A program made the position numbers and the translations under genes. Under the pieces are notes generated by a model. It ran no database searches. It had not been told where the DNA came from and saw only the letters and a list, made by a program, of their open reading frames with translations. Shown piece by piece: positions 1,263 to 64,000 of a DNA stretch of 64,000 nucleotides; within the stretch, counting starts at the first letter, position 1; the number at the start of each line of letters is the position of its first letter. Source of the DNA: Botryllus schlosseri (lineage: Eukaryota); NCBI GenBank assembly GCA_051294905.1, contig CM119372.1:1178001-1242000 (forward strand), given 5' to 3'.

Positions 1263-1298
1263 GTACGTGGGTTTGCGTTGTAATGCGGCAATTAAATC

Positions 1299-1362
1299 TT
1301 CGTGTGATGACGCTTTACCGCCCCGGTCTGATCGCGGTGACTGATTTGGTTCTGCTGATGAA
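1299..1362 (+). ncRNA. SNORD31: Box C/D snoRNA, SNORD31/U31-type, copy 2
   Basis: Box C GTGATGA 1304-1310, guide TACCGCCCCGGT plus CTGA 1328-1331, D box CTGA 1355-1358. Confidence 0.8.
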
Positions 1363-1896
1363 AAAAATTGCCTCGGCCGTGTGCTTGTGACTTTTGGTTT
1401 CAAATGTGACTTCCTTGTAAGAAAGGGGTCTTCCTATCAAACTCGAGCAGGGGTTTCCAACCTTTTCAAAATTCATTTGCAACTTTTGAAAAGTTGATGG
1501 CTTGCATTTTTTCAACTATTAGCAAAAATTGAAAAACGTTTTCGTAATTGGAACACTGGTTTATATCGTAATCGATTATTTAGTGATGAAATGATATGAA
1601 CACAACACACGATAAACGTGATAGTGCATAGATTACTTGTTGCATATTTAGTTATTGTGATGGCTGAGCTTGTTGACAATGTCTATCGTAAACTCGTGAT
1701 CAAGTATCCTGTTACTGTACTGGTATTTTTATTGATCATTTTAATTGCTTTCTTTCATTGTAGCGGAGTGGACTTCATGATATTGATTTTTTTTCATTGC
1801 TCCTTAGGTTGGTGACCCCTGAACTAGAGGAATTTTAATGCCTCCTTTCCTACATGAGAGTGAATGATAAATTTAAGACGTGTTTTGGCTTTGCAG

Positions 1897-4441: not shown

Positions 4442-4482
4442 GTGAGTGCTGGGCTAAAGAGTATCGGTGCTGCAACTTGATC

Positions 4483-4545
4483 TTCATATGATGAGCAGCT
4501 ACCGCCCCAGTCTGATTTCTGTGACTGATTCGGTGTTCTGATGAA
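4483..4545 (+). ncRNA. SNORD31: Box C/D snoRNA, SNORD31/U31-type, copy 3
   Basis: Box C ATGATGA 4488-4494, guide TACCGCCCCAGT plus CTGA 4512-4515, D box CTGA 4538-4541, ttca/tgaa stem. Confidence 0.85.
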
Positions 4546-4945
4546 TAATCCTGTGTCTGTTCGCTTGTCTGGATGATGAGTACATGACACTATCATAATA
4601 TCCATTACCCAGGATGTATAGTAAAAGGCCTTAATCATAAGCGCCAGTGGCCATTCTAGGTATTGACCATTTGAATAGGGACGGGCACAGTGAACAACTA
4701 ATTATTACAGTTCAAGTTATTGAATCCGGAATTGTGTATTAGGCTTGAGTTGGGCGAGTATCCCTTATGTGTATGGATGGTGTGGAAAATTGGAATATGT
4801 ACCTTTTATGCGACCAGAAATAGAAATGAATGCCGGTTCTACGCCAAACAATGGTGTTTTGGTAATCTTTTTACCATGCCTACCTCGTTGTACTTGGTGA
4901 CAATGCTACGGGTCGATCAGGACTACGCAGATGTGTCCTTTGTAC

Positions 4946-19438: not shown

Positions 19439-20888
19439 CAGTGGTTCTCAACCTTTTTGGCTTCGCGGACCCCTTTTGACCGTCGCGGACCCCCTCAAGT
19501 TTTGGTTCAATTTTAGCTCTATTATGGTGCAACATTCATCTGTCTTGTGCAAATATGAGCTGTAGGCTTGTGATAAACAGCAAAAGAATGATTTTTCTTG
19601 AAAATAATATTATACTATTTATGTATAAATGGGTAAACTTTCATTACTTCAAAACTAATTTTGCTGCTGTATTTCTTGAAGTACGTGGTCGTGTCTTGAA
19701 AATCCGGGTCTTCGTTTTGATATGAACGAAGAGTGCCGGAAACCATTTCCGCAAAGATAGATGGAGGCCAATGCAGTATTACCGCATAACGCTTCCGACG
19801 ATACTTTTAGTGTGATCGCAACATTTATGGCACCAAATGAAGAAACATATCACACTCAGCATCTAGCGCAGGGACGGGCAACATGCGCACCGCGGGCCGG
19901 ATTCGGCCCGCAGATAGTTTTTACCGTCAAAGTTAAATCCTAATCTAAAAGTATAGACAGATTTTATGCGTCAAAGAATGTATCCAAGTTTTCCAACCTG
20001 AGAAAGACTGTCATGAAACGACTTGTTCTGTACGGGTCTACAATGTCTACCTACATATGTATATTTACGAGCAAACATTTGCGACCATGAACAATTGAAC
20101 ATTAACACGACAAGGCTGCATACCAATATAACTGGTGATGTGAATTTCAGGGTTGGAGCGTAATGCTTTGACAGCAACTAAACAGTCCTTGTTAATTAAA
20201 AAAACAGCCTTGTCGATAGGGTATCCGCAATAAGAATGCGCCAAATCTGATAGCCGAGTTTTAAGAGTAGATATATCATTGTCCGATTTCTGACGAGTGT
20301 CAGCCTTAAATATTCGGGTTCATTTCAATATGAATATACTATTCAATTGTATATTGAAGTTCTGTACCTCCAAGAAGCTGTTCAAATAGTGGTTATGTAT
20401 ATCACAGGATAAATGGATTTTGTGGCGAGGTTTCAATCCCTGCATTGGGACAAATTAGGGAAATATTTCGGGAATTTTTATCTCAAACGACTGTTCACTA
20501 ATTTGATGACAACTTCAAATCGAGAAGGTTTCGCAGACATTACGAAGTCACGCTGATTGACGTTACTATCTCCATATTTTTATTTTAACCCCAAACCCCC
20601 AACGAAACGTATTTAAACAGCAATATGTTTGTATCATCAGGTTATTGGAAAATGGACAATGAAAATGAATTTCCACACAACGATAGCTCATGTCAGACGA
20701 TTATTATGATGATATGAGTCATGAGGTTTTAGCAGTTGTGGCGCGAAACTGCCTCATGCTTCCTTAAATTAAAAAATTAAATAAAAATTAGGTTATCAAC
20801 CATTTTAAAAATTTAGAGGTCTCGCGGACCCCCTGAAATTGCTTCGCGGACCCCTAGGGGTCCGCGGACCCCCGGTTGAGAACCGCTG
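19439..20888. mobile_element. hAT (Charlie-like) non-autonomous element
   Basis: CAGTGGTTCTCAACC / GGTTGAGAACCGCTG termini, 8-bp TSD GCGTAGAT. It interrupts the LINE RT at AFDCVD|H. Confidence 0.88.
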
Positions 20889-26180: not shown

Positions 26181-26852
26181 AGTGTGTCAACGCTAATCTA
26201 TTAATTCACAATGTTAGGCCTACACTTCAATGATAGAATTTATAATACTATTGCATGATGGTCGTTTTGACAGAAATACAAGCAATATTGTGAGTCGGTG
26301 GTAATGGTAAAGTGAATAAATTTGATGCTTATAAAGACCACCTGACCGAGCTGGGAAACCTTTGATAAATTCTAGGTTTAAAAACATTTATATTGATACG
26401 TAGTTGAACAGCATTTCTAACTGCTAATATCATCAAATACAAATTTAAATTCAAAGACTTGCCAAGGACACTGTGACTCACTCTGACTGCAGAATAGTTT
26501 GGAAACGAAAAACAACTCAAAAATCACTCTGATACGATTGTTGATATACAATGCTCTTTCCAATTCTATACTATAGTTGCTGACGAGTGTCAGCCGAATA
26601 CATTTGGGTTCATTTCAATATCAATATGTTATTCAATTGTATTTCGAAGTTTGAAGTTCTGTCCAAAGTCCAACCAAAAAGGCAAAAGCTCCTCTAGTTG
26701 TCAAATTTCACTGAATTAGAGCGAAATGCCAGTAATCCAATTCTAATCTAATTTGGAAAGCTGAAAATTTCCTAGTTGTCCATCGTTCAACTCTGCACTG
26801 CAGCCAGGGCCAGGGCAGGGACTGTTTACATTGCTCAGTGAGAGTATAGAAT

Positions 26853-43276: not shown

Positions 43277-43965
43277 ATCTAGATAGATAGTGATCTATAA
43301 TTGGCCTCAGAATGACTTGTGTAGTGTTTTGACTCTTATAGGTGTTTTGAAGTGATGAGATTCTTAATAAACTCAGAGTCATGACAGAAGCTTTACATAT
43401 GCCAATATAGTTATCGCCTAATATAGTTTATATGGTTTCAGATGCAAGGGAGAATGTCGACGAATACAATCGCGACCGTTAGGATCAAGTGCAAGCTTCG
43501 GTCTTCACAGTTGTCCTACTTTTTTGGAACTGTCGTGTAATAATAAACGAGAATGAAGCATACTATTTCGTAGGTATTTCCGGCGCATTCATCAGACTGA
43601 CAGAAGTTTATTTCCAAAAATTGAGAGAACCTATTACAGTATTTGAAGAGTCTGTTTGAGGTAGGCCTACCGAATTTCAGTACACAATTAAATTAAATAT
43701 CATATTCGTATTGAAATAAACCCGAATATTCCTTACATACACTCGTCATGGGCAATTGTCAGTAACTAGAAGGGAATTGAAAAGAACCTTGAATATCAGC
43801 AATCGTTTCACAAAATATGACGTCACCGGCGAGAAAGTTTGAGTAATCTAGCACGGCTTAAGTTCAACTTATTATACACGGACTCCTTTTGTTGGCTGGT
43901 GTATTTTTGATGAAAGTAGACTCAAAGGCACGTTAAGTGAAATGTTGATCAGCTACACGACGCGA

Positions 43966-45389: not shown

Positions 45390-45670
45390 CTGTGAATAAT
45401 ATTCTCTAGCGTTAGAAGCAGGCTGGGCAATAATGAGCAGGCTACCTTAAGTGATTCGAGTCTGGACCGAGTATTAGGTTGTTATAGTATATTCGAGTAT
45501 CACATATTACGACGTCGCAACAGGATGAACGATACGGGAAGTTCAAATATGTACCATTTATGCAACCACAAAGAATATAATGCCAGTTGTACATCACATT
45601 AAAGATATACAATTTGGTATTTTTTCGAACATACCTATTTCAATTGAAAAGTATATTCATATTGAAATGA

Positions 45671-45704
45671 ACCCGAATATTTTCGGCTGACACTCGTCAG
45701 GGGT
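45671..45704 (-). ncRNA. Minimal type I hammerhead ribozyme motif
   Basis: Reverse complement reads ACCC-CUGACGA-G(UGUCAGC)C-GAAA-AUAU-UC-GGGU. Confidence 0.7.
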
Positions 45705-45949
45705 AATCGTCAGCAACTATAGTAGAGAATTGGAAAGAACATTGTATATCAACAATCGTATCACAAAATATGACGTCACCAGCATGAAATTTCGTGAATG
45801 AGAGAGCATTCAATGTACTATTTTTAGGTACATTGAAAAAAAAATAGTACATTGAGTGCTCTCTAATTTCATGCTGGTGACGTCATATTTTGTGATCCCA
45901 TTGTTGATATACAATGTTCTTTCCAATTCTCTACTAGTTGCTGACGATT

Positions 45950-45983
45950 ACCCCTGACGAGTGTCAGCCGAAAATATTCGGGT
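45950..45983 (+). ncRNA. Minimal type I hammerhead ribozyme motif
   Basis: Stem I ACCC/GGGU, core CUGACGA, 1-bp stem II, GAAA, palindromic AAUAUU stem III, UUC triplet with predicted cleavage after 45979. Confidence 0.72.
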
Positions 45984-46374
45984 TCATTTCAATATGAATA
46001 TACTTTTCAATTGTATATTGAAGTTCTGTACCTCGAAGAAGCTCTTCAAATACCTATTTCATTGCACTTTGTGACAATGACGTGCGGGTGGATCACGACT
46101 TCACAGATACGTAATTTTTTATTAGTGCGTGGTTTTGTATTACATATGTTTCGTATGCAATCAGCCTTCCACAGTAGGAAATAGTATCGAGACAATAATT
46201 TCCGTTGATAAATTGTCTCTTAGTGACAAGCAGTGTGTAATTTTAGCATTCGAAAATATCGTATTTTTTCTACTCTGCTCGACTCCTAATATACACGATT
46301 ATTATAATAATAATATTCAATATTTATGTGAAAACAATTAATGCTATGGTAGTTACAGCAACTCAATTCCTCAC

Positions 46375-46578: not shown

Positions 46579-46598
46579 CTGTTAAAACATATACCTAT

Positions 46599-49466
46599 TT
46601 GAATAGCTTCTTGAACGAGGTGCAGAATTTCAATATAACGCGATTGAGTAGTATATTCATATTGAAATGAACGCAAATAGTTCCTGTTGACACTAGTCAG
46701 GGGTAATCGTCAGCAACTCAGAATCGGAAAGAAAGAACATTCTAGATCTAGAATTTAGACCAGTGGTTCCAAACGTGGGCGATATCGCCCACCAGGAGGC
46801 GATTTTAAGAAAGAAGGAGGCGATGGTGGCGAAAATGTTAGAACGTCCTGTGAGATATAGGACATGGTACCGATGATCAAGAATTGCAAAATGATATCTG
46901 GCCCTCAAATCTCAAGTCGATGAGAGCAGATCTTTTGTTGGCTCAAGACTTTGATACAAGCTCTACCTATCGGAGATATATACATGGATGGATGGATATC
47001 CACCAATTGAAAAAATAGTTCTGAACGTTCGAAATTTGTTGCTGGAACGTATCGTCGGTCTCCACCAGGGGGGTCGGAAGGAACACGACCTGTGAACCGA
47101 TACGAGACATACACTCAAAAAGTTAAATGTTCCAACTTTTCTTGCTGTGTTAAATAATCTAAGCTACAGCAAGCAAAAAAGAATAAATAGAATAAATAAT
47201 ACGTCAAATGTTGCCATGAAATCACGTTTTGATTTAAGCACAAACTTACAAATTTGTTTGTACACTGTTCACACCACCTCTCTGTGGCGATCACGATCGC
47301 CCTCGTTTATGCTAAGACCTACCGGTCCCCCGTCATCTCCCAATCCATACCAATTTACATGTTGTGTTTGTTGGTGAGATGAATAAAAGCATACTGACTA
47401 CCGCCTTATTCCGCGCTTGTTCGTCCGCTGCGATTCTACCGACCGTGCGCATAATATCGTCAAAACCCAACAAAATCGCGCATCTTTGGCCGGAACTAGG
47501 CGCTTGAAGACGGGCGGCGTTTGCCGGCTCATGACTAAATGTGAGCATTTACGAATTTCTTTCAATCATACCGTAAAAGAAACGCGATTTTCAGGCAATG
47601 TCTGTATCGTATTCGTACATCATGATATATCATTGGCCTCACATGTACAAATTATGTATTTGAATTGAAAAAAGTCCACTTAAGGATGATATTGAATAAT
47701 AAATATGTGCCGTTATATAGCCTGGTAGAAGCACTACAGTTCACATAAAAATTATGGTAGGTTTGTTCGTGTTGAATGTTACAAAGAAAAATGAATGCGT
47801 CGATCGAAATTTATTTTATACCACCCGAAACAGAAAACATCTGTCAGAGACCCCAAAACTCATGCAGGTTCAAGTTTTTTGCATGCGAGGAAAGATTCTG
47901 CCAGCATGCAATTATAGACAAATTCACGGAGTGTAATCATGGGATTATCATAGAAAAATTTTCAAGTATTTTCGGTCCCAGTGTCAAATAGGTACCACAT
48001 CTCCCCTATTTACTACCCCGGCCAAAAATTCACGTGGAGACTGCTTATTAGGGATGGTGTGAACTTGAGGTTCACGTTCGCGTTCTGTGTGTGAACCTCG
48101 GAAATTTAGAGGTTCGCGTTCACAACAGAACCTTGGTTGGTTCTGCACTGTGAACCTTTTTCATATATTACAATTTTCACATCAATATGATATTTTTGGT
48201 TCGAATTTATTGCATTTCAACTGCGGGCCACTCTATGCATGACGCTGGCAGCATAAAAAATCAACGCAAAACGAGCATGCACCTTGACAATCTCAAAGAT
48301 TTTATTTGCTTTGTTACAAAGTTTGCACGAAATATCCACCTTCCCGTTTGTGAATATTTAGTGACTCTCTGCTGTGAGCTTGACCCGCAATCACACAACA
48401 TCACGAGCAACATGCAGTACCTGTAGTCAGCGAATGATGCTTATTCAACCAATCAATGAGATTGATATCGCTTTTTGATGTAATAAATCTAGCAGTCAAT
48501 CTTGACTTCATATGTTTATAGTATCATTAAAACAAAATCCGTGCGATTGAGGTGTTGGCTACAGCTGTATCACTTGTGGGGTAGCCGAATATCGGTACCA
48601 AATATGGAAACATGTTTTACGCTCTGCCCAATATCAATGTAGCAATAGTCAGACGCCGCATACATTGTCCGGTCTGGCGAAGGCCGTTGAGGCGTAAGCT
48701 TATATTCACTGGCAACTCCTCGTCGAAATTGTCGGCAAAGCGACGGATGATATTGATTTTATGGGAGTATCATATCATTTGACTGCCTCAGTTGATACAT
48801 TTAGCGAGGTTTCAAACGCCAATATGTATTTAAGCATTGTGTCATTATGTGGCCCGAGTCGTCGTTAGGTATCGTGTACACTGTACATGTACACATTAGT
48901 ATAGGCTATCCATTAATTGAAATGTAAGGTTGAAATTAGCAATATGACGTCACGTGACGTCATGAGGTTCACGTTCGTGTTCACACAGAACCTTTCAAAA
49001 AGGTTCACGTTCACACGAACCTGAACCTTTCGGAGGTTCACACCATCCCTACTGCTTATTCTGCATATGACGCGAAAGCTGACTAAAAAAGGTCAACTCA
49101 ACCGAAAGTAGACGCGGAAATCGGATTTCCGAGCACCTACTCGGATAAATGACCATTTTTTAGTTAGTCAATTCACCAACGATCAGAGTTAATTGAATAA
49201 ATTTCCCGTAATATATATGTCCTCTTTTTCGAATCTGTAAATATTGGGGGGGGGGGGGGGGCGGACATTTGTGACGAGCTTGGTAAGGGGGGGATGAGTC
49301 GAAAAAGGTTGGGGACCACTGATCTAGGACCAACAATCTCCATATTTTGGGATCCGATTGTTGATATATAATGTTCTTGCCAAATTTCTTCTATAGTTAC
49401 CGACGATTACCCAGACCAGTGTCAGTCGAAAATATTCGGGTTCATTTCATTATGAATATACTATTC
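46599..49466 (-). mobile_element. Older copy of the hammerhead-bearing palindromic family, expanded by nested insertions
   Basis: Same asymmetric ends, 13-bp TSD AACATATACCTAT. Contains a CAGTGGT-ended element (about 46761-49321) that itself contains 48049-49051. Confidence 0.7.
48049..49051. mobile_element. hAT-type non-autonomous element (TAGGGATGGTGTGAAC termini)
   Basis: TIR, TSD CTGCTTAT; second copy at 60790-61748. Confidence 0.9.
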
Positions 49467-50034
49467 AACATATACCTATATGAAAAAGGTCGTTGGAAAT
49501 TATTACAGAGAAATTGATATAGTCTTCATTTGTCAACCGCACAGAAATTAGAAAAGCCAGATATAAACGGGAGGCGCGATGTAACAGTTGTCTAATCCGA
49601 TCATTTTAGAGCGAAATGCCGCTAATCTAATTTTAATCTACATTGTGAAATGTTTCCAATCAATCAATTATGTGACAATTAATCAGGTTCTAATATTCTA
49701 AGCCAATTTCTGGTTTCCCGGAAAATGCTAGAGGAGAACTGTGTTGTGCGAAAAGAGCCAAAGCTCGCTGCACAGACATTGGCTATTGTCACGCTTTTTA
49801 TAATGAACTGTGATTTGACATGGGGTGAACTATGATTTAATTTCCAAGTTTTCGCGAAATCTCTAATTCTAATTGTATAATCTACTTATAATGTGTATCA
49901 ATCATTGTAATTCGAATTGGGAAAAGCTGAACAAGTGAACATCTTGACGTTGTCAAACTTAGAATCATTGCCCAGGCTGGTCCAGCAGCTTCGCTAATAT
50001 AGCAAGGCGTATGACAAACCGGTAGTCCACCCAC

Positions 50035-53316: not shown

Positions 53317-56300
53317 GAGACGGACTTTCAGCATTCCCGTGGCCACTTACTGGCCACGGATAATTTCGTGGCCGGCCACAGATATTCCGTGGCCGGCCAT
53401 GAAAAGTGTTATTCTGTGGCCGGCCATGGTAATTTTCATGGCCGGCCATGAAATTTCAGTATGGCCGGCCACGAAATTTCCATGGCCGGCCATGTCAAAC
53501 TCATTGTCATGGCCGGCCATGACTAAATTTCATGGCCGGCCATAGCCAAATTTCATGGCCGGCTGCAATATATCAAGTTATATAGTATCGATGATAAGTA
53601 CTGTATGTGGCCCAATCGTGGACAAATGCATGATCAATTATGTTCTATTATGGGCGTACAGTAAATAGAACTAGGTGAGAGCGAGAGTTTAGCTCAGTTT
53701 ATATGCATTTTCACCTGAAATACCAGATGAATAGCGATACAATGAAACGATAGGAAGAAGATGAAGCGATATGTAATAGTCTCTATATATCAATTAAAAA
53801 CACAAAAAATGATGTAAAGAATGCATTAAAAAGGGGGATATCCTCTAAATGAAACAGGAAATAATGGTATAGAAAGCTAGAAGTGATGAAGACATTATCA
53901 AAACTGGTAACTGGTAAGTGTTGATTTATATCTTTTTTATAGAAATATACCTAAATATTCGGCTGACACTCGTCACAGCTAATCGTATGCAACTGCATAG
54001 AATTGGAAAAAACAATGTTTACCAGATATCTGTCAGAAAATCTCTATAAGTTCCCCAAAAGCTGTGAGATTCACATGACATTCTGTGGCCGGCCACAGAA
54101 CAGATCAGAGCTCGCTGTGGCCGGTGCTTCCCCCGTTCTGATATTGATTTTCAACCGTAAGATGTGCAATGTGCATTGTGCAGTTGCAATCGATTGTATA
54201 GTTAGTTTTATTTTGTAAATATGCAAACCGACGATTAAACAATATGATGATGATAATGGCCTTCATTTTTCAACCATGTTTATCGTTTATGATGAGTCTG
54301 CGATGCGAATAAGTAATACATATATATTTGATCATGCCTCAGTTTAATGATGTTTGTAGGGGCAGTTTAAAATCTTTCGTGGATTGCCCTGATGAATTTA
54401 TGAATAATACAATACTGTACTGGGAATTTGTCTTAATTCACTGCCAATTTTCGATTTACGCTTAAGTAGACTCGACTATTACCTCCTTGAATGCATAATC
54501 TGTTCCATCGAGATACTGGATCGGTCAATATGCGGTCATTTTACCTGTTTTCTTGTTTCAATACTAAATACCGTAATGAAAGTACCCGAACGAAACAATT
54601 AGGGAATCAAAGAACCAAGAATATGTGGAAAATACTGTTTCAAGTTCCAGAAAAGCTGTGAAATCCACATAACATTCTGTGGCCGGCCACAGAGCAGCTC
54701 GCTGCTCGCTGTGGCCGGTGCTTCCCCCGATCTGATATGTCTTTCCAACGGTATAGGACATGTAGGCTAGTTGCTAGTTTGTTATCTTTCGTATAGCTGA
54801 ATAGCTGTGAATTTGATAATGCCAGGCTGATACAATCCTTCCTCTCTGTATCAGGTCTATGATAATTCCGCGATATGCGGTTATATACATATTTGATTAT
54901 CGTACTGCTATACAATACATACGACGTTCGAGATCCTCAACATCAATGGAGCTTGCACTCATTTGCACGATGAGAATTGTGTCGATGCATCTAAGAATAT
55001 TTCTATGCTGTAGCAGCACGTGAACTTGACACACTGCAGATGTGCTGTGGATGTAGAATAAAGACAACGATGTAGCCTAACCTGCCGGTAATATTGGTAA
55101 AATGTGGGGCTTTGTTCCCAGAAATTTGATTTTGGTCACGTTTTCGATCCTATATAATTTGTATGTATAATGTATATTGTATATCCACCTAGGTGCCGTT
55201 CTTCCAGGCTGAAGCAAATACGAATGAGATGCATGTCGCAGTCACTAACGATGCCGTGTATGCCAGAGGATACTTGATTACTTGGGTGCAAGGATCGTTT
55301 TGTATCGCATGTCGTTGTTAGATCAAGCTGCTAACCGATGTGGTGGGCTTAGGACGTAAATGTGCCTGCTATATAATTAAATTATTGTTATAATAATAGA
55401 TAACTTCAGATACTTTGCGTCATCTAAGGCAGCAGCATCGATCGATGCGACATCAAATGCAGCGCCATCGATCGACGAAAAAATGCTCATGTCAAGCCTG
55501 CGAATTGACCAATAGGCATGATATATTTGTGGTTGATGCAGGGAACAATGTGCAATTCAGCGAAAAATCTTGATGACACAGACAAGTCCCAATCATTCAT
55601 TATAATTCGACATTTGAATGCAGTACAAATACTTATCGCCGTGCAAAGTGCATCCGATCTCTCGTGCCCCTGGGTGTTTTCTGTGAAAAGCATGTACCGG
55701 ACACATTGCATTCATGCAACTACTTGCATGAATTGTGAATGATTGTAATCATATCTTCAATTGCTACAGATTTTGTGAAATTGGTAACGGAATAAACAAA
55801 CTTTTTGTAGCAAAATATGACGGCTTCTTTATGTAAAAAACGAAGGAGGGGCAGGGAGTCAGTTTATCTACGTTTCCATCGCTAATGGGCTTGGGCGATG
55901 GAGATGCGAAGAAACTGCAAGGCTATCGAGTCTGCACCACGGTTTTATCTTTCACGCAATCCCATTGCGTTGATCGCCTGGCGTGGAAGCTGTGTGGACA
56001 CCAGTTTTAATGTAAAGACGTTTGTCTGACCGAGCAATAAGATGTACGCAGTACGCTCATACATTACTCTATCAAATATATATCTAGATTCTAGAAAGTT
56101 CAAGGAACGTATGTTTCGGTGTTAGTTTACAATGCACCGTCCCAGAGTACTTTTTCAATAGTCAGTGGGAATTAAATTCATTTCTACAGCGAATAGAGAA
56201 GGTAACACGTGTAAAGCCGTGCAAATTTTGAACCCATCCCTAAACTAATCAATAAAGTGGTAATGTAACTTATGTACGTGCGATAAAATAGTGGAAGTCG

Positions 56301-59338: not shown

Positions 59339-59581
59339 AGCTAGGGTAATGGACAGATTCGAGTGAAAATGGGGCATAAATGACGCTAAATAGCAATTAC
59401 GGACGTTCCAGCGGGCCATTCGAGACTTGAGCAAGAAAGCGGACCTTTCTAATTTTAGCCAACTCCACAAATTTTCCAGCAAAAATTGCAAGATCGGCAG
59501 TTTTCAGTTTTGATCAACTAACTTTTCTGATTTGGTAAAAGCGTCCTCCTTTCCCGATTCCAAAATATGGTAACCCTAGAC

Positions 59582-59955
59582 CAGTGGTTCCCAACCTTTT
59601 TCGACCCATCGCCCCCTTTTCAAGGTCAACACCGATCATAGCCCCCCAAATTTTGTGTACCGAAAATTGGGCATACAAACTGTAATCACCGGCCGGTTGA
59701 CTAAAAAAAATGGTCAAATTTTCGGCTCGATGTCTAATTCGACACACTTTTGTAACTAAATTTCCGTGGGTTGACTAAAAAAAAAGGTCAGCCGTTTTGA
59801 CGCGTCATCGCCCCCCTATCGCCCCCTTCGCTATTTTCGCCACCCGTCGCCCCCTTTGTCCATTTTCGCCCCCTGTCGCCCCCTTCGTCATTTTCGCCCC
59901 CTAGACCGCCAAATCGCCCCCTGGGGAGCGATATCGCCCACGTTGGGAACCACTG
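59582..59955. mobile_element. hAT (Charlie-like) MITE with TCGCCCC repeats
   Basis: CAGTGGTTCCCAAC TIRs, CCCTAG-containing flanks. Confidence 0.8.
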
Positions 59956-60789
59956 CCCTAGGTCCCTAGATTCAACCAACTTCGGAAAATCATTAAACTT
60001 AATGATCAGTAACGTTATCAGTTTATTAATAATTTCATCATATCAAGGCACCACAAAGACTGCGATAAAACATGGGAGAATGTCGAAACGACTTGAAATC
60101 ACACCGGGCCTACCGGGCCTAGGCGATGTAAATAAGGGGCATGCACATTGCACGTACTGGATGCAAAGAAATGTGGGATAACATAACACGACTAGTGATG
60201 AAAATGAATGACGCATGTGTCGATAGGCGAGGCTGATACGTCAAGTCGAGGTTCAGTAATCTTGAAGGCCGACTCCTACGTAGCTACACAGTGTTAGATC
60301 ACATCATCAAGATATACAATTCGTAAGCTACAGTCGCTCATCACGGTATGCAACACCGTTAAAATCTACACCAATACTCTTACACAGACCTATAACGGTT
60401 TTTGAGGAAGAAGAAAATGCCTTTCTAAACCCATTGCTATCAGTGTGGGTGCAGAGGTGGTCAAAGTAATCAAGAAAGTTACTCAAGTAGAAGTAGAAGT
60501 AGCGACGAAAAAATCTACTCAAGTTCGAGTACAAGTAATTCTTTCATAAGCAACCTAAAACTACTTGAAGTAGAAGTAGAATTGACTGACTTTAAATCTA
60601 CTTATGTAAGTAAGTAGTTGTGAAAACGATCGTCAAAAGCTGCAAATTGAGGTATGCTTAAGGTGCAGAGCTTGATTCATATTGATACATACCAGGAGGT
60701 ATAAATTTTCGACACCACAAGCGTTCGTCCCATCACGGGATGAAAATGATAGTATTGATAAGAAAATGCGATACTAATCCTGTGTTTAC

Positions 60790-61748
60790 TAGGGATGGTG
60801 TGAACGTGAGGTTCACGTTCGCGTTCTGTGTGTGAACCTCGGAAATTTAGAGGTTCGCGTTCACAACAGAACCTTGGTAGGTTCTGCACTGTGAACCTTT
60901 TTCATATATTACACCATTACAAACTCTATGCATGGTGTTGGCAGCATTAAAAATCAACACTAAACGAGCATGCACCTTGACAATTTCAAAAGTCTTACTT
61001 GCTTTGTTACAAAAGTTTGTTCGCAATATCCAGCTATCCGTTTGTGAACATTTAATCACTCTCTGTTGTGAGTTTGACCCGCAATCACACAACATCATGA
61101 GCGAAATACGTGGTCAGCGAATGATTCTTATTCAACCAATCAATGAGATTGATATCGTTTTCTGATGAAACATAATCTTGCAGGCGTACGGGGTCAATCT
61201 TGACTCCATATCTTTACTGCATCATTAAAACTAAATCCGTGCAATTGAGGTGTTGGCTACTGCTGTATAGTGTATAACTTGTTAATGCGATAATATTTAA
61301 AGCAAGTATAGAAAGCCGTTTTACACTCAGCTCAATATCAATGTAGCGATACTCAGACGCCGAATCCATTGTCCGGTCTGGTCTAGACCGTTGAGGCGTA
61401 AGCTTATATTCCCTGGTAAGTCTTCGTCGAAATTGTTGGCAAAGCGACGGAAGAATGATTTTATGGGAGTATTATATCCTTTAATTGCCTCAGTTGATAC
61501 ATTTGGCGACGTTTAAAACGCCAATATGTACTTTGGCATTGTGCCATTATGTGACACGAGTCGTCGCTAAGTATCGTGTATATAATTGTACATAAATATA
61601 GGCTATCACTTCATTGAAAGTTAGGGCTGGAATTAGTAATATGACGTCACGTGACGTCATGAGGTTCACGTTCGTGTTCACACAGAACCTTTCAAGAAGG
61701 TTCGCGTTCACACGAACCTGAACCTTTCAGAGGTTCACACCATCCCTA
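60790..61748. mobile_element. hAT-type non-autonomous element (TAGGGATGGTGTGAAC termini)
   Basis: TIR, TSD GTGTTTAC; homologous to 48049-49051. Confidence 0.9.
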
Positions 61749-62662
61749 GTGTTTACTCGAACAGTCCGTTTCAGAGGGTGTCTGATCTTAACACTACTAC
61801 TTGTCGTTTCGGCATCTCCCTATCATCCATTGTATTGCAGTCTTGTGATGCATTGAAGTGATGAAATTTTATGAATAAACTTGAACTTGAATTTGCTAAT
61901 AAGGTTGGACTGATTTTTGCAAAAACATATGGTTATAATGTGTCATGTGCGTCAAATCATAGTGTCCTATATATGGCGTGGACACAAGCAAGTGTCCCGC
62001 GGCTCATTGAAATTGGTCTACATTACACTTTCCATTTAGTCAAAGGCAATTTGATGGTACATTGTGACCGGCTTGCCGAACATTAAGTTGGATAAATCAT
62101 TTGGCGAGCCATGAAAAATCATCTCGCGTGCCACAAATGGCGGGTTAGGGTTGCCGACCCCTAATCGCTGGTTGATTGATCGTCCGGCTAGTTAGAAAAC
62201 TCAATGTTGCATAACGATTAACCATGAACATCTACGGAGAACGCTGGTGACGATTTTCGATTAAATGTAGACTACCATACGACCGCTAACGACGTGACCA
62301 CATATTCATAAATCAGACTTTGATGCACAGACAGAGCTTTTAATGTACCGATGCTCCGAATCAGTTTCCCGTAGTCCATGGCACACGCATCTACTCTCAG
62401 CGCCTTCCAATTTGTAGCTAGCTCCCCTTCTAGGTTGCAAACACCCCTATAGATTTTATTACTCGTCGACAATTGGTACAAGCTTAAAATTGTATCATAT
62501 GGATTGTGTATCGAAGAATCGCATCATATAAATATGTTTCTGAGGTTTTATATTCCATCATCTATTTGGCTGATGTAGTTTAGCAGTTATACGTATTTGA
62601 ACAGCTTCTTTGAGGTACAGAACTTCAATATACAATTGAATAGTATATTCATATTAAAATGA

Positions 62663-62696
62663 ACCCGAATATTTTCGGCTGACACTCGTCAGGGGT
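62663..62696 (-). ncRNA. Minimal type I hammerhead ribozyme motif
   Basis: Identical in sequence to the 45950-45983 motif, on the minus strand. Confidence 0.7.
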
Positions 62697-63044
62697 AATC
62701 GTCAGCAACTAGTAGAGAATTCGAAAGAACAGCGTATATCAACAATCGTAACACAAAATATGACGTCACCAGCACGAAATGTCGAATACGAGAGCGTTCA
62801 ATGTACTATTTTTAGATGATACACGAACTCTTTTTGTTGACACAGCCTTGGCTTGGAGCTTGGAGTCGACTTTTATCAAAATACTCCAGCCAAGGCTGTG
62901 TCAACAAAAAGAGTTCGTGTATCATCTAAAAATAGTACATTGAACGCTCTCGTATTCGACATTTCGTGCTGGTGACGTCATATTTTGTGTTACGATTGTT
63001 GATATACGCTGTTCTTTCGAATTCTCTACTAGTTGCTGACGATT

Positions 63045-63078
63045 ATCCCTGACGAGTGTCAGCCGAAAATATTCGGGT
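63045..63078 (+). ncRNA. Minimal type I hammerhead ribozyme motif
   Basis: AUCC-CUGACGA-GUGUCAGCC-GAAA-AUAUUC-GGGU; the single change gives a U-G wobble in stem I. Confidence 0.68.
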
Positions 63079-64000
63079 TCATTTTAATATGAATATACTA
63101 TTCAAGTTATACGTATATACAGAAGCCGTGCAACACCCCATTGAAGCTATAAATAACTCGCCATTCATTACTCGATCCGACTTAATAGCGACTCAATCAT
63201 CATGTAGAATGCCCCGCACTTCGATATGACTTTGTGCCTGGACTTGAGACACCTCCAAAAACGAGCGACATGACTCGAGTCAAAACGTGTAATGAAAATC
63301 TCCGTGATCCCAACGCTGTCTACTTTGGAAAAGCTGAAAAATTTCTAGTTGTCATATTGCAATCAACAAGGCGCGGGCTGTCTACGTTCTACAATGCCCG
63401 ATGATTTGCGAGTCACAGGTTGTAGATGCACATTGCACACCCAGTGTAGCCAGCTTGATTGTACGTCCGCCCGATTTACATAAATCTTCTCAATTCCTTT
63501 CCAACTTAGCTTCAACACGTCCCTAGTCAGATTGTAACAACGACATCGCACAACATAACCGTTGTTTATAAACCGCGCATCAGAATGTGACAGTACACCA
63601 GCAAATCGTTGAGACATCGCAGAATAGCGACCAAATATACAAAATCGTAACGGTTATCGTTGTGGTCGCAACATTTCAGGTCAAAATGAAATTTTCACCT
63701 CAGAACAGAGTTGGAATCACCATGAAATGCAAACGATTAAAATCAAATAGGTATTTGCACAAATGAATTATACATTCTCAAGATTAGTTCGCAAAATCCA
63801 GTTTCTAACTAGGAGCATCAGAACACATTTTCGATTACCAAAGCTGACATGTTGTAACCTGTGAGCCGAACATTTGCAGACAATCCTTCGGTTCAGGAAG
63901 CTACTTTTATACTGATCTAAAGGAATACATGGAGAGAGAATATTCTCATTGTACAATATGCGAGAAAAAACGTTCCTTTTTGACAGTAATAGAGCTGCAT

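Follow-up and report, generated by a model that had tools for sequence, protein, structure and literature searches.

The insertion units of canonical, endonuclease-positive Penelope-like elements (PLEs) were reportedly treated by Evgen'ev and Arkhipova in 2005, and the minimal hammerheads of metazoan PLEs are said to have been covered by Lünse, Weinberg and Breaker in 2017. Retrozymes, another group of hammerhead-bearing elements, consist of direct tandem repeats and are expressed as circular RNAs. Canonical PLEs form partial tandems that create pseudo-LTRs (pLTRs), are strongly 5'-truncated and carry a hammerhead in the pLTR; in the accessible part of the same account, ordinary PLE insertion is characterized by an adjacent inverted 5'-truncated copy together with a one-sided tail of 30–40 bp (Craig et al., 2021, PMC8557442). 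For the PLE Poseidon PAc of Anolis carolinensis, nicking and extension take place on both target strands, the tail is defined by two reverse-transcription start sites that lie internally and next to each other, and the ORF start overlaps the hammerhead (Frangieh et al., 2024, PMC11167929). The minimal hammerheads of metazoan PLEs are described, in the available sections of Cervera and de la Peña (2014, PMC4209133), as type I motifs in the pLTR, with a short helix III whose palindromic loop implies action as a dimer; dual motifs lying 100–700 bp apart on opposite strands were read there as truncated PLEs. Metazoan retrozymes belong to the non-autonomous non-LTR retrotransposons, carry type I hammerheads and are thought to depend on other retroelements, as far as the accessible text states (Cervera and de la Peña, 2020, PMC7229834).

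Palindromic inserts of this general appearance occur in the 64,000-nt stretch of the Botryllus schlosseri genome analyzed here (the window). Their architecture has already been published (Cervera and de la Peña, 2014; Craig et al., 2021; Frangieh et al., 2024), and they are no new kind of system. They share all the above features of canonical PLEs, and no structural difference emerges from the accessible part of that account, the presence of a single tail being a rule here (23 of 23 complete pairs) vs "often" there (PMC8557442). With PAc they share an ORF start adjoining the hammerhead, two adjacent reverse-transcription starts inside the beginning of the ORF that define the tail and the nicking and extension of both strands (both from biochemistry there, presumed here), AT-rich targets and a hammerhead cut site without RNA-seq ends. 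On the other hand, the start sites lie about 16–28 and 55 nt into the ORF here vs 111–118 nt in PAc, and the ATG is placed 3' of the cut site, whereas the PAc cut site falls 26 nt after the ATG (PMC11167929). The minimal hammerheads of 2014 also resemble ours in the U3-A8 core variant, the conserved G10.1-C11.1 pair and the occurrence of opposite-strand motif pairs in truncated copies; the consensus given in the available sections has a 6–8-bp hairpin helix II and a bulged base after A9, whereas helix II is here a single pair and its 7–8-nt loop forms base pairs with a six-base stretch 5' of helix I (PMC4209133). That hammerheads in general may have a helix between stems I and II is already known, according to the accessible text of PMC10085705. 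Metazoan retrozymes are comparable in being non-autonomous, in their type I hammerheads and in their supposed dependence on other retroelements (PMC7229834, available text); unlike the direct, non-coding repeats of retrozymes, the present inserts consist of PLE ends that contain ORF sequence and are paired in inverted orientation.

The 62.6-kb insertion and its source element

Positions 62597–63104 of the window are occupied by an inverted repeat of 508 bp. Both of its arms contain a hammerhead-like motif, only one end has the 39-nt tail, and a 12-bp target-site duplication, AGTTATACGTAT, flanks the whole (62585–62596 and 63105–63116; direct-repeat search, 100% identity). By repeat search, the inverted arms span 62636–62853 and 62888–63105 (218 nt each, 34-nt spacer) with 100% complementarity; inspection by eye gives one mismatch, in helix I (left G, right A). 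The left arm including the tail (62598–62853, minus strand) is a 5'-truncated PLE copy that matches positions 2427–2682 of the PLE unit with 99.2% identity, and its tail (62597–62635, minus strand) corresponds to about codons 6–18 of the PLE ORF (unit ~2644–2682; string and unit matches). The right arm, without tail (62859–63105, plus strand), is likewise a 5'-truncated copy (unit 2398–2644, 98.4% identity), whose inner 29 nt constitute the hairpin centre. Each arm comprises the last ORF codons, the pLTR and the opening codons of the ORF that follows. ORF residues 840–857 are encoded by the left arm at 62854–62801 and residues 830–857 by the right arm at 62857–62940 (tblastn), followed by the stop TGA read from the letters at 62941–62943; at the other end of the right arm, the first 16 nt of the ORF, from the ATG at 63089, extend to the probable proximal, no-tail start site of reverse transcription (63089–63104, plus strand; letters and unit match). 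The 39-nt tail probably marks the distal start site, by analogy with PAc. A preliminary description had regarded the arms as non-coding, wrongly so: tblastn places the last 18–28 codons of the PLE ORF in them, and the tail represents the ORF start.

The arms represent the 3' terminus of an autonomous PLE which is intact elsewhere in the same genome, in line with the Penelope-like derivation initially proposed. Arm and tail together correspond to the 3' end of a unit of 2683 bp, which occurs in 100% identical tandem copies and holds an 857-codon open frame. Tandem units of 2683 bp were found in locus L048, and tandems also in L049–L052, forming partial-tandem pLTRs; the end of the ORF runs into the arm, and the tail letters continue as ORF at the tandem junctions (MNMLFNCILKFCTSKKLFKY...), terminal copies ending at ...CTGTTCA. 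The Pfam RVT_1 domain is recognized in the PLE ORF (32.2 bits vs a cut-off of 29.6, E 1.1e-7), and the translation contains PDKGSG, that is, the DKG motif considered diagnostic of PLE-type reverse transcriptases (PMC8557442, accessible part). The C-terminal 172 aa score just below the Pfam cut-off for GIY-YIG (21.3 vs 22.6 bits, E 3.3e-4), as does family C (18.7 bits); the relatives P0013 (60% identical) and P0085 (43%) exceed it with 27.5 and 25.9 bits, and VVYEF...YVGRT is legible by eye in the PLE translation. Copies adjoining an ORF with reverse transcriptase plus a candidate GIY-YIG domain, a check suggested at the outset, do exist.

The PLE unit matches all seven places first singled out in the window. 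Besides the insertion at 62598–63105, these include a second head-to-head pair (45641–46049, unit match to 46048), a member of the sister subfamily B (93.5% identity to B, 90.3% to A), in which a minus arm without tail (unit 2465–2647) faces a plus arm (unit 2467–2682) with the tail at 46011–46049, between the duplications ATACCTATTTCA read from the letters at 45631–45642 and 46050–46061. An old pair at 46599–49468 consists of a tailed minus arm (46600–46733) and a plus arm (49341–49468) with identities of about 80–83%, split by 2607 nt of non-PLE sequence; its duplication, AACATATACCTAT, was read from the letters at 46586–46598 and 49467–49479, and its cores are mutated, as had been noted. 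All three copies are real palindromic inserts with asymmetric arms and a one-sided tail, and the 12–13-bp duplications claimed for them were found. The decayed single arms reported near 20290, 26580, 43720 and 53950 also match the unit: a 95-nt tail-bearing copy (20290–20384, plus strand) stands head to head with an internal ORF fragment (20135–20290, minus strand, aa 228–279; unit match and tblastn), two decayed single 3'-end fragments lie at 26530–26651 (plus strand, 79.7% identity) and 43668–43929 (minus strand, 71.8%), and a decayed 60-nt fragment of the pLTR/hammerhead region lies at 53955–54014 (minus strand). A 24-nt tail string has three matches without mismatches in the window (20347 plus, 46011 plus, 62612 minus) vs 0.00 expected, and the motif CTGANGA..CGAAA..TCGGG has four (45672 minus, 45954 plus, 62664 minus, 63049 plus) vs 0.00 expected from 100 shuffles. 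These four matches bear out the motif described for each arm of the 45.6- and 62.6-kb copies, except that the right arm of the latter reads AUCC and not ACCC.

The hammerhead module

At the sequence level, the motif reads as the minimal type I hammerhead with palindromic stem/loop III initially recognized; stem II is a single base pair, and loop II forms a pseudoknot with the 5' flank. The core CUGANGA ... GAAA ... UH and the helix order I-II-III-I are both present. The left-arm module (62663–62706, minus strand; motif search with core 62664–62692, and shared module layout) runs from strand a through a linker, helix I, the core CUGACGA, loop II strand b, GAAA, AUAU and UC to GGGU. The right-arm module (63035–63078, plus strand; motif search, module layout and alignment) comprises strand a (63035–63040), the helix I 5' strand AUCC (63045–63048), the core (63049–63055), strand b (63058–63063), GAAA (63065–63068) and loop 3 (63069–63072), and its predicted cut lies between C63074 and G63075. 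One layout is common to all 12 instances of the module, which represent at least five lineages, and the motif was found in each lineage examined. Variants of the core are UUGANAA, with U3-A8, and UCGAUAA, an off-core form of one lineage in which U4 is replaced by C.

The hammerhead fold is supported by covariation between lineages, of which at least five are represented. In the alignment A2, 85.9% of the pairing cells are paired vs 70.0% in shuffles (0 of 500 reach the observed value), both sides change in 10 of 15 pairs, and covariation is 0.485 vs 0.206 (0.03–0.11 with slid partners), as measured on the same 10 sequences from which the structure had been derived. Both-side changes affect four of six pseudoknot pairs, with 96.3% of cells paired, and five of eight helix I pairs; the C3-G8 position is CG in two rows and UA in seven, and loop 3 is palindromic or near-palindromic throughout. 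Judging from its sequence, we take the module of the master element for a conserved hammerhead of type I that includes a pseudoknot, and consider its self-cleavage putative. The curated Rfam hammerhead model, run as one of the checks proposed, gave no match at the gathering score, nor at E values up to 10 on 62560–63140; the miRNA-family matches of a relaxed Rfam search are artefacts, as the perfect inverted repeat produces spurious look-alikes.

A tentative alternative, which we regard as possible although rather improbable, is that the module 5' of the ORF start is chiefly a structure for binding the reverse transcriptase or for initiation, with little or no cleavage in vivo; it concerns only the hammerhead and is compatible with the explanation preferred below. 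The predicted cut site without read ends would fit such a role: no pile of read ends was found there in three raw RNA runs, whose libraries are not end-specific and whose reads come mostly from truncated copies, and the sole sizeable pile in these runs (X22, position 1489 of L048) lies near the tail end. The unfavourable fold energy points the same way, since the monomer hammerhead fold was computed at +5.2 kcal/mol vs -10.5 for two competing hairpins, and helix III is also absent from the minimum-energy fold of the dimer. Furthermore, one lineage whose frame is intact (I/L) reads UCGAUAA, in which C replaces the conserved U4; the Anolis PLE hammerhead cleaves only with protein, is dispensable for in vitro insertion and shows no RNA-seq ends at its site (PMC11167929); and minimal hammerheads have low activity even as dimers, according to the available sections of PMC4209133. 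Against this alternative, the changes between lineages are those permitted in a hammerhead: C3-G8 becomes U3-A8, G10.1-C11.1 and GAAA are invariant, loop 3 remains palindromic, and both helix I and the pseudoknot covary. The preliminary description had also implied action as dimers; this does not hold for a hairpin, whose motifs are on opposite strands. No sense-sense dimer is thus possible, and only one arm per transcript presents the hammerhead in sense orientation.

Head-to-head pairs among the top-scoring loci

Loci were the top-scoring matches, the best 40 of 2929 candidates; 27 head-to-head pairs were listed, and the pair statistics use the 23 that are complete. Tabulating duplication lengths and tail asymmetry, as had been recommended, gave duplications of 9–16 bp and exactly one tail-bearing end (tail of 39 nt) in 23 of 23 pairs. 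The outer ends are tail plus no-tail in 22 of these, the remaining one (L044) combining the tail with an intermediate end at unit 2662. Duplications measure 12 bp (8 pairs), 13 (8), 14 (4), 15, 16 and 9, thus 12–16 bp in 22 of 23, vs chance matches mostly of 3–6 bp and at most 8 in 257 random placements, and the duplicated targets are 79% A+T vs 59% for the window. Inner truncation points differ in all 23 pairs, ranging from unit 255 to 2644.

Arm variants in 19 of the 23 pairs amount to 71 differences from the reference copy common to both arms vs 45 private ones, some of the former being possibly private to the reference copy itself. Arm lengths fall within 50 nt of each other in 9 of 23 pairs, which independent truncation alone does not predict; at least two of these nine (L061, L067) were found only via the hairpin-centre search, which favours such pairs. 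The tail arm is the shorter of the two in 13 pairs but the longer in 10, and the expectation from a trailing polymerase that it should always be shorter was rejected. Self-primed (snap-back) synthesis was also considered as an origin of the symmetric hairpins; it predicts an identical outer end on both arms, and such ends are never seen.

Single, non-inverted 5'-truncated copies with the same ends also exist (14 examined), and 10 of the 14 bear the tail; a search of their 5' junctions for short pieces of inverted tail gave nothing above chance. Among the loci examined, only L008 has a tail-only inverted arm. Full-length copies beginning at the hammerhead cut site were not found among the six upstream partial units in the loci examined; four of these end inside the locus (unit 2473, 2512, 489 and 1633) and two are clipped by the locus edge (2465 and 2262).

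Origin of the hairpins

Each hairpin is very probably the product of a single insertion event of the autonomous, putatively endonuclease-bearing PLE, a reading built on the observed anatomy, autonomous source, per-copy truncation and covariation. With double-strand priming and the two start sites modelled on published biochemistry, the PLE protein would nick both strands of an AT-rich target some 12–16 bp apart, and each 3'-OH would prime reverse transcription within the element RNA, starting about 16–28 nt into the ORF at the no-tail end and 55 nt into it at the tail end. Both minus-strand cDNAs would stop early, and their 3' ends would meet, anneal over a few bases and be filled in mutually. 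The outcome would be two 5'-truncated copies head to head, surrounded by the target duplication and with the 39-nt tail on one side, in which the hammerhead-like module of the pLTR, just 5' of the ORF start, is carried along passively. The inserts retain little or none of the ORF, and are so dead on arrival.

As a tentative refinement, itself on the doubtful side, both arms may be copied from one RNA by two subunits of a PLE-protein dimer, 39 nt apart, each priming from one nicked strand. This would explain the single tail of every complete pair (vs 10 of 14 single copies tailed), the sequence variants common to both arms, why either arm can be longer, and the arms equal within 2–44 nt in some pairs, as both cDNAs would run off the same RNA 5' end.

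The preliminary description favoured instead a distinct non-autonomous hairpin retroelement made of two inverted pLTRs, transcribed and mobilized in trans by the PLE protein, which we now consider very unlikely, since the arms are 5'-truncated autonomous ends with their own truncation points in 23 of 23 pairs. Several hairpin centres do fall in one zone of about 60 nt (unit 2370–2430), but this zone is ascertained, having been found with a hairpin-centre query, and the inner ends of the 23 pairs spread over the whole range given above. A copy at C3:37.74 Mb, with another flank and duplication, has nearly the inner ends of the 62.6-kb copy (2396/2423 vs 2398/2427), in favour of this element; against it, the junction letters of the two differ. 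Among the best 40 of 1034 candidates, the 90-nt centre of the 62.6-kb hairpin has a 100% match only to itself, the next one (94%) having another junction and its own 13-bp duplication, and no internal junction common to independent loci, as expected of propagation as a unit, was found. The hairpin arms are transcribed on both strands in the raw RNA runs, which favours this element; against it, the arms contain ORF sequence, the 508-nt hairpin RNA is predicted to fold as one perfect duplex (-408.7 kcal/mol), and it would lack ORF sequence past the start sites, whereas the Anolis element needs the first 172 nt of the ORF as such a template (PMC11167929). A DNA-transposon MITE with terminal inverted repeats, suggested by the short, AT-rich, palindromic inserts with target duplications at their flanks, is refuted by the 39-nt end asymmetry in all 23 pairs, the duplication length that is not fixed (9–16 bp), the arms composed of a retroelement ORF 3' end and UTR, and the 14 single non-inverted 5'-truncated copies that share the same ends.

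In genome annotation, the hairpins should be treated as PLE fragments and masked accordingly, and not as MITEs, microRNA precursors or a new element class. If both arms were indeed copied from one RNA by a protein dimer, perfect hairpins could feed small-RNA silencing of the PLE. The Botryllus genome contains unusually many young PLE lineages whose full-length frames are open (850–877 codons), and is thus a good natural data set on the origin of the PLE tail and inverted copies, and on the role of the hammerhead.

The 62.6-kb hairpin and its autonomous relatives

A near-perfect inverted repeat spans window 62597-63104, with arms of 218 nt each at 62636-62853 and 62888-63105, separated by 34 nt; the inverted-repeat search gives 100% complementarity between them, and one mismatch is seen by eye. 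The 12-bp direct repeat AGTTATACGTAT flanks the hairpin on both sides, and 39 extra bases (the tail) are present on one end only. The 24-nt core of the tail occurs three times without mismatch in the window, and the hammerhead-like string CTGACGAGTGTCAGCCGAAAATATTCGGG four times, with none expected in either case; the latter is found once per arm in the 45.6-kb and 62.6-kb copies. Repeat and motif counts thus bear out what the preliminary description had observed (inverted repeat, one-sided tail, duplications and one motif per arm), and its remaining duplications and copies were all found in the window. A relaxed Rfam search scored window 62764-62977 as plant and animal miRNA precursors (MIR447 at 100.7 bits on the hairpin, under its gathering score of 200); inverted pairs of Penelope-like elements (PLEs) could be wrongly annotated as miRNA genes.

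When one arm was searched against the assembly from which the window comes (219 contigs, 495.5 Mb), many of the best 40 of 2929 first-look candidates, those that were scored, proved 100% identical to it. Some arm pairs lie 1-3 kb apart, and the open frames between them carry YRRYVDD and VVYEF..YVGRT, their C-terminus (..PRLCQQKEFVYHLKIVH) extending into the arm. The search with a reverse transcriptase piece (best 150 of 992 candidates scored) yielded open frames of up to 857-877 codons, many of the matches being in tandem or head to head; locus L048 holds two 2683-bp units that are 100% identical. The 857-residue frame exceeds the Pfam cut-off for RVT_1, contains PDKGSG, and scores 21.3 bits for GIY-YIG in its last 172 residues, just under the cut-off of 22.6, which relatives at 60% and 43% identity pass. 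Among 8000 candidates, 888 protein relatives had E <= 1e-10, the best being 64% identical; almost none carries a name.

Along the L048 unit, the end of the stop codon is at 2482, the first base of the hammerhead core at 2588 and the ATG at 2628, with the predicted cut after 2613; copies without tail end at about 2644-2655 and tailed ones at 2682. The tail letters end at ...CTGTTCA in terminal copies and run straight on as ORF (MNMLFNCILKFCTSKKLFKY...) at tandem junctions, so the arm holds the final ORF codons, the pseudo-LTR (pLTR) and the initial codons of the unit that follows; the tail is coding sequence. The genome contains eight or more additional PLE lineages whose open frames span 850-877 codons (e.g., C10:6486463-6502194, C11:890969-905154 and C13:6124141-6139330), many in 3-5-unit arrays and head-to-head arrays, and apparently young PLEs are unusually numerous in it. 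A CRE-like TGACGTCA or the half-site ACGTCA/GCGTCA was also seen in every PLE lineage read, ~70-100 nt ahead of the hammerhead, as in the pLTRs at window 62973-62980 and 62761-62768 and in loci L078, L079, L084, L088 and L089; this other conserved block of the pLTR is a candidate promoter element.

Probable independent origin of head-to-head pairs

Every retrieved locus was mapped onto the unit, and minus-then-plus neighbours were extracted, giving 27 pairs, 23 of them complete, a set drawn from the top-scoring matches and no census. Of the four incomplete ones, a deletion or insertion interrupts L066 and L036, L015 extends further than its hit, and the L048 row represents a junction within a larger array. 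The inner ends differ in 23/23 complete pairs, ranging from unit 255 to 2644, and each pair has its own duplication, of 12 bp (eight pairs), 13 bp (eight), 14 bp (four), 15, 16 or 9 bp; chance duplications in 257 random placements were mostly of 3-6 bp, with a maximum of 8. A+T reaches 79% in the duplications versus 59% in the window. The 90-nt centre of the window hairpin had a 100% match only to itself among the matches scored; the next best (94%, C3:37.74 Mb) has inner ends nearly equal to those of the window copy, a 13-bp duplication of its own and other letters at the junction. Besides the pairs, 14 copies stand single; these are 5'-truncated too and have 3' ends of the same two types. 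The hairpins fit independent abortive insertions of the autonomous element, not the copying of one hairpin sequence. Family and motif had been correctly named in the preliminary description; the new non-coding, MITE-like retroelement that it proposed is not supported, given the independent truncations among the top-scoring loci and the source PLE found. Such hairpins are an ordinary by-product of PLE integration, already described.

Regarding the other copies in the window, the 45.6-kb pair belongs to subfamily B, and a 95-nt tail-bearing copy at 20290 lies head to head against an internal ORF fragment. The 46.6-49.5-kb pair, an old one at 80-83% identity, is interrupted in its centre by 2607 nt without PLE protein similarity (window 46734-49340). 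Ends and middle of this insert recur at window 59575-59955 and 60783-61758 (the ends near 59.6-59.9 kb, the middle at 80.7% identity to 60783-61758), which makes it a nested, unrelated repeat; the insert, whose two ends resemble inverted repeats (..GACCAGTGGTTCCAAAC / GGTTGGGGACCACTGATC..), is probably a DNA transposon with another repeat nested inside it. Two SNORD31-type C/D box snoRNA matches, both on the + strand and 3.2 kb apart, lie at window 1297-1364 and 4481-4547 (46.1 and 53.9 bits, gathering score 40), probably in introns of a single host gene.

The hammerhead module across lineages

No hammerhead was found by the Rfam search, and the lineages were therefore compared; in each of A, B, C, D, E, H, I/L and J, either the 3' end or the junction preceding the ORF start was read. 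A common layout was present in 12/12 parsable instances (L048, L049, L050, L053, L056, L078, L079, L080, L084, L087, L088 and L089); a thirteenth (D3, L086) did not fit it. The layout consists of six bases (strand a); eight bases with the linker and the helix I 5' strand; the core, a G and one base; six bases that pair with strand a; a C followed by GAAA; a loop that is palindromic or nearly so (AUAU, AGCU, AGUCU or AGUUCU); and U and H followed by the helix I 3' strand. The pseudoknot strand lies a constant 8 nt from the hammerhead core in all 12 instances, a distance spanned either by an 8-bp helix I without linker or by a 4-bp one together with a 4-nt linker. Strand pairs include GCUGAC/GUCAGC, CGUGCC/GGCACG, UGUGCC/GGCACA and ACUAAC/GUUAGU, with 5/6 pairs in lineages H and J, and helix I is ACCC/GGGU, ACUC/GAGU or UUCGCUA/UAGCGAA, depending on the lineage. 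The core reads CUGAYGA or UUGANAA, the latter with C3-G8 replaced by U3-A8; that of lineage I/L, UCGAUAA, departs at U4.

In alignment A2, with a structure derived from the very sequences used to test it and ~5 independent lineages, paired cells amount to 85.9% versus 70.0% in shuffles (0/500 reach it), pairs changed on both sides to 10/15 (reached in 1/500), and covariation to 0.485 versus 0.206 shuffled and 0.03-0.11 with slid partners. Based on the common layout and this covariation, we call the module a type I hammerhead, with a predicted one-pair stem II, a loop II/5'-flank pseudoknot and a dimer-type loop 3. Small PLE-associated hammerhead variants were reportedly described by Lünse et al. 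in 2017. The U3-A8 pair, palindromic loop 3, G10.1-C11.1 and dimer action are already in print (PMC4209133), as is a helix joining stems I and II for hammerheads generally (PMC10085705).

Folding of the monomer prefers two hairpins at -10.5 kcal/mol, with both core boxes buried, over the hammerhead fold at +5.2 kcal/mol. In three raw RNA runs (one bulk and two single-cell), coverage is concentrated on the pLTR. Of the mapped reads, 64-98% continue into unlike sequence, so their sources are truncated copies embedded in other transcripts, on both strands. No read-end pile was present in these runs at the predicted cut site (L048 4233/4234 and 1550/1551), in agreement with the Anolis PLE report; the sole sizeable pile sits near the tail end. 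Since one arm is antisense and the 508-nt hairpin RNA is predicted to form a single duplex (-408.7 kcal/mol), the cleavage question would be moot in hairpins.

One tail per pair and a proposed mechanism of insertion

A tail end is combined with a no-tail end in 22/23 complete pairs, and with an end at unit 2662 in the remaining one (L044); exactly one tail-bearing end is therefore present in 23/23, with no exception seen (L003-L070 and the window). Of the two outer sides of the complex L048/L041 array, likewise only one bears a tail. Tails were found in 10/14 single copies, and ends choosing independently would give ~41% discordant pairs, versus all observed. The tail arm is shorter in 13 pairs and longer in 10; arms are equal within 50 nt in nine, at least two of which (L061 and L067) came solely from the hairpin-centre search, which favours equal-arm pairs. 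In the L008 pair (L008:1497-2551, C15:6.16 Mb; 14-bp duplication), the inverted partner of a 1016-bp truncated, tail-less copy is nothing more than the 39-nt tail (unit 2644-2682, 100% identical), as though synthesis of the second cDNA had ended right at the other start site. Differences from the reference copy in 19/23 pairs (L008 and L024 left out for too little overlap, L021 and L047 not entered) comprise 71 common to both arms versus 45 private, although some of the shared ones may be private to the reference copy.

PLE insertions are described by Craig et al. (2021, PMC8557442) as strongly 5'-truncated, often in partial tandems or with an inverted 5'-truncated copy, and with a 30-40-bp tail often at one end only, whereas here the one-sided tail is present in every complete pair. 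The Anolis PLE protein, a predicted dimer, nicks and extends both DNA strands at AT-rich targets, with two adjacent internal reverse transcription starts in the beginning of the ORF, the tail being the stretch between them (Frangieh et al., 2024, PMC11167929). From the point-for-point agreement of our loci with both descriptions, we infer that the two nicked strands would each act as primer, each at its own start site, and that the two minus-strand cDNAs would then anneal and fill each other in. The strict one-tail rule, together with the variants shared between arms, suggests that one RNA may serve as template for both cDNAs, synthesised by a dimer with its two active sites 39 nt apart. Only two results deserve to be carried forward: the regularity of one tail per pair and a data set rich in lineages.
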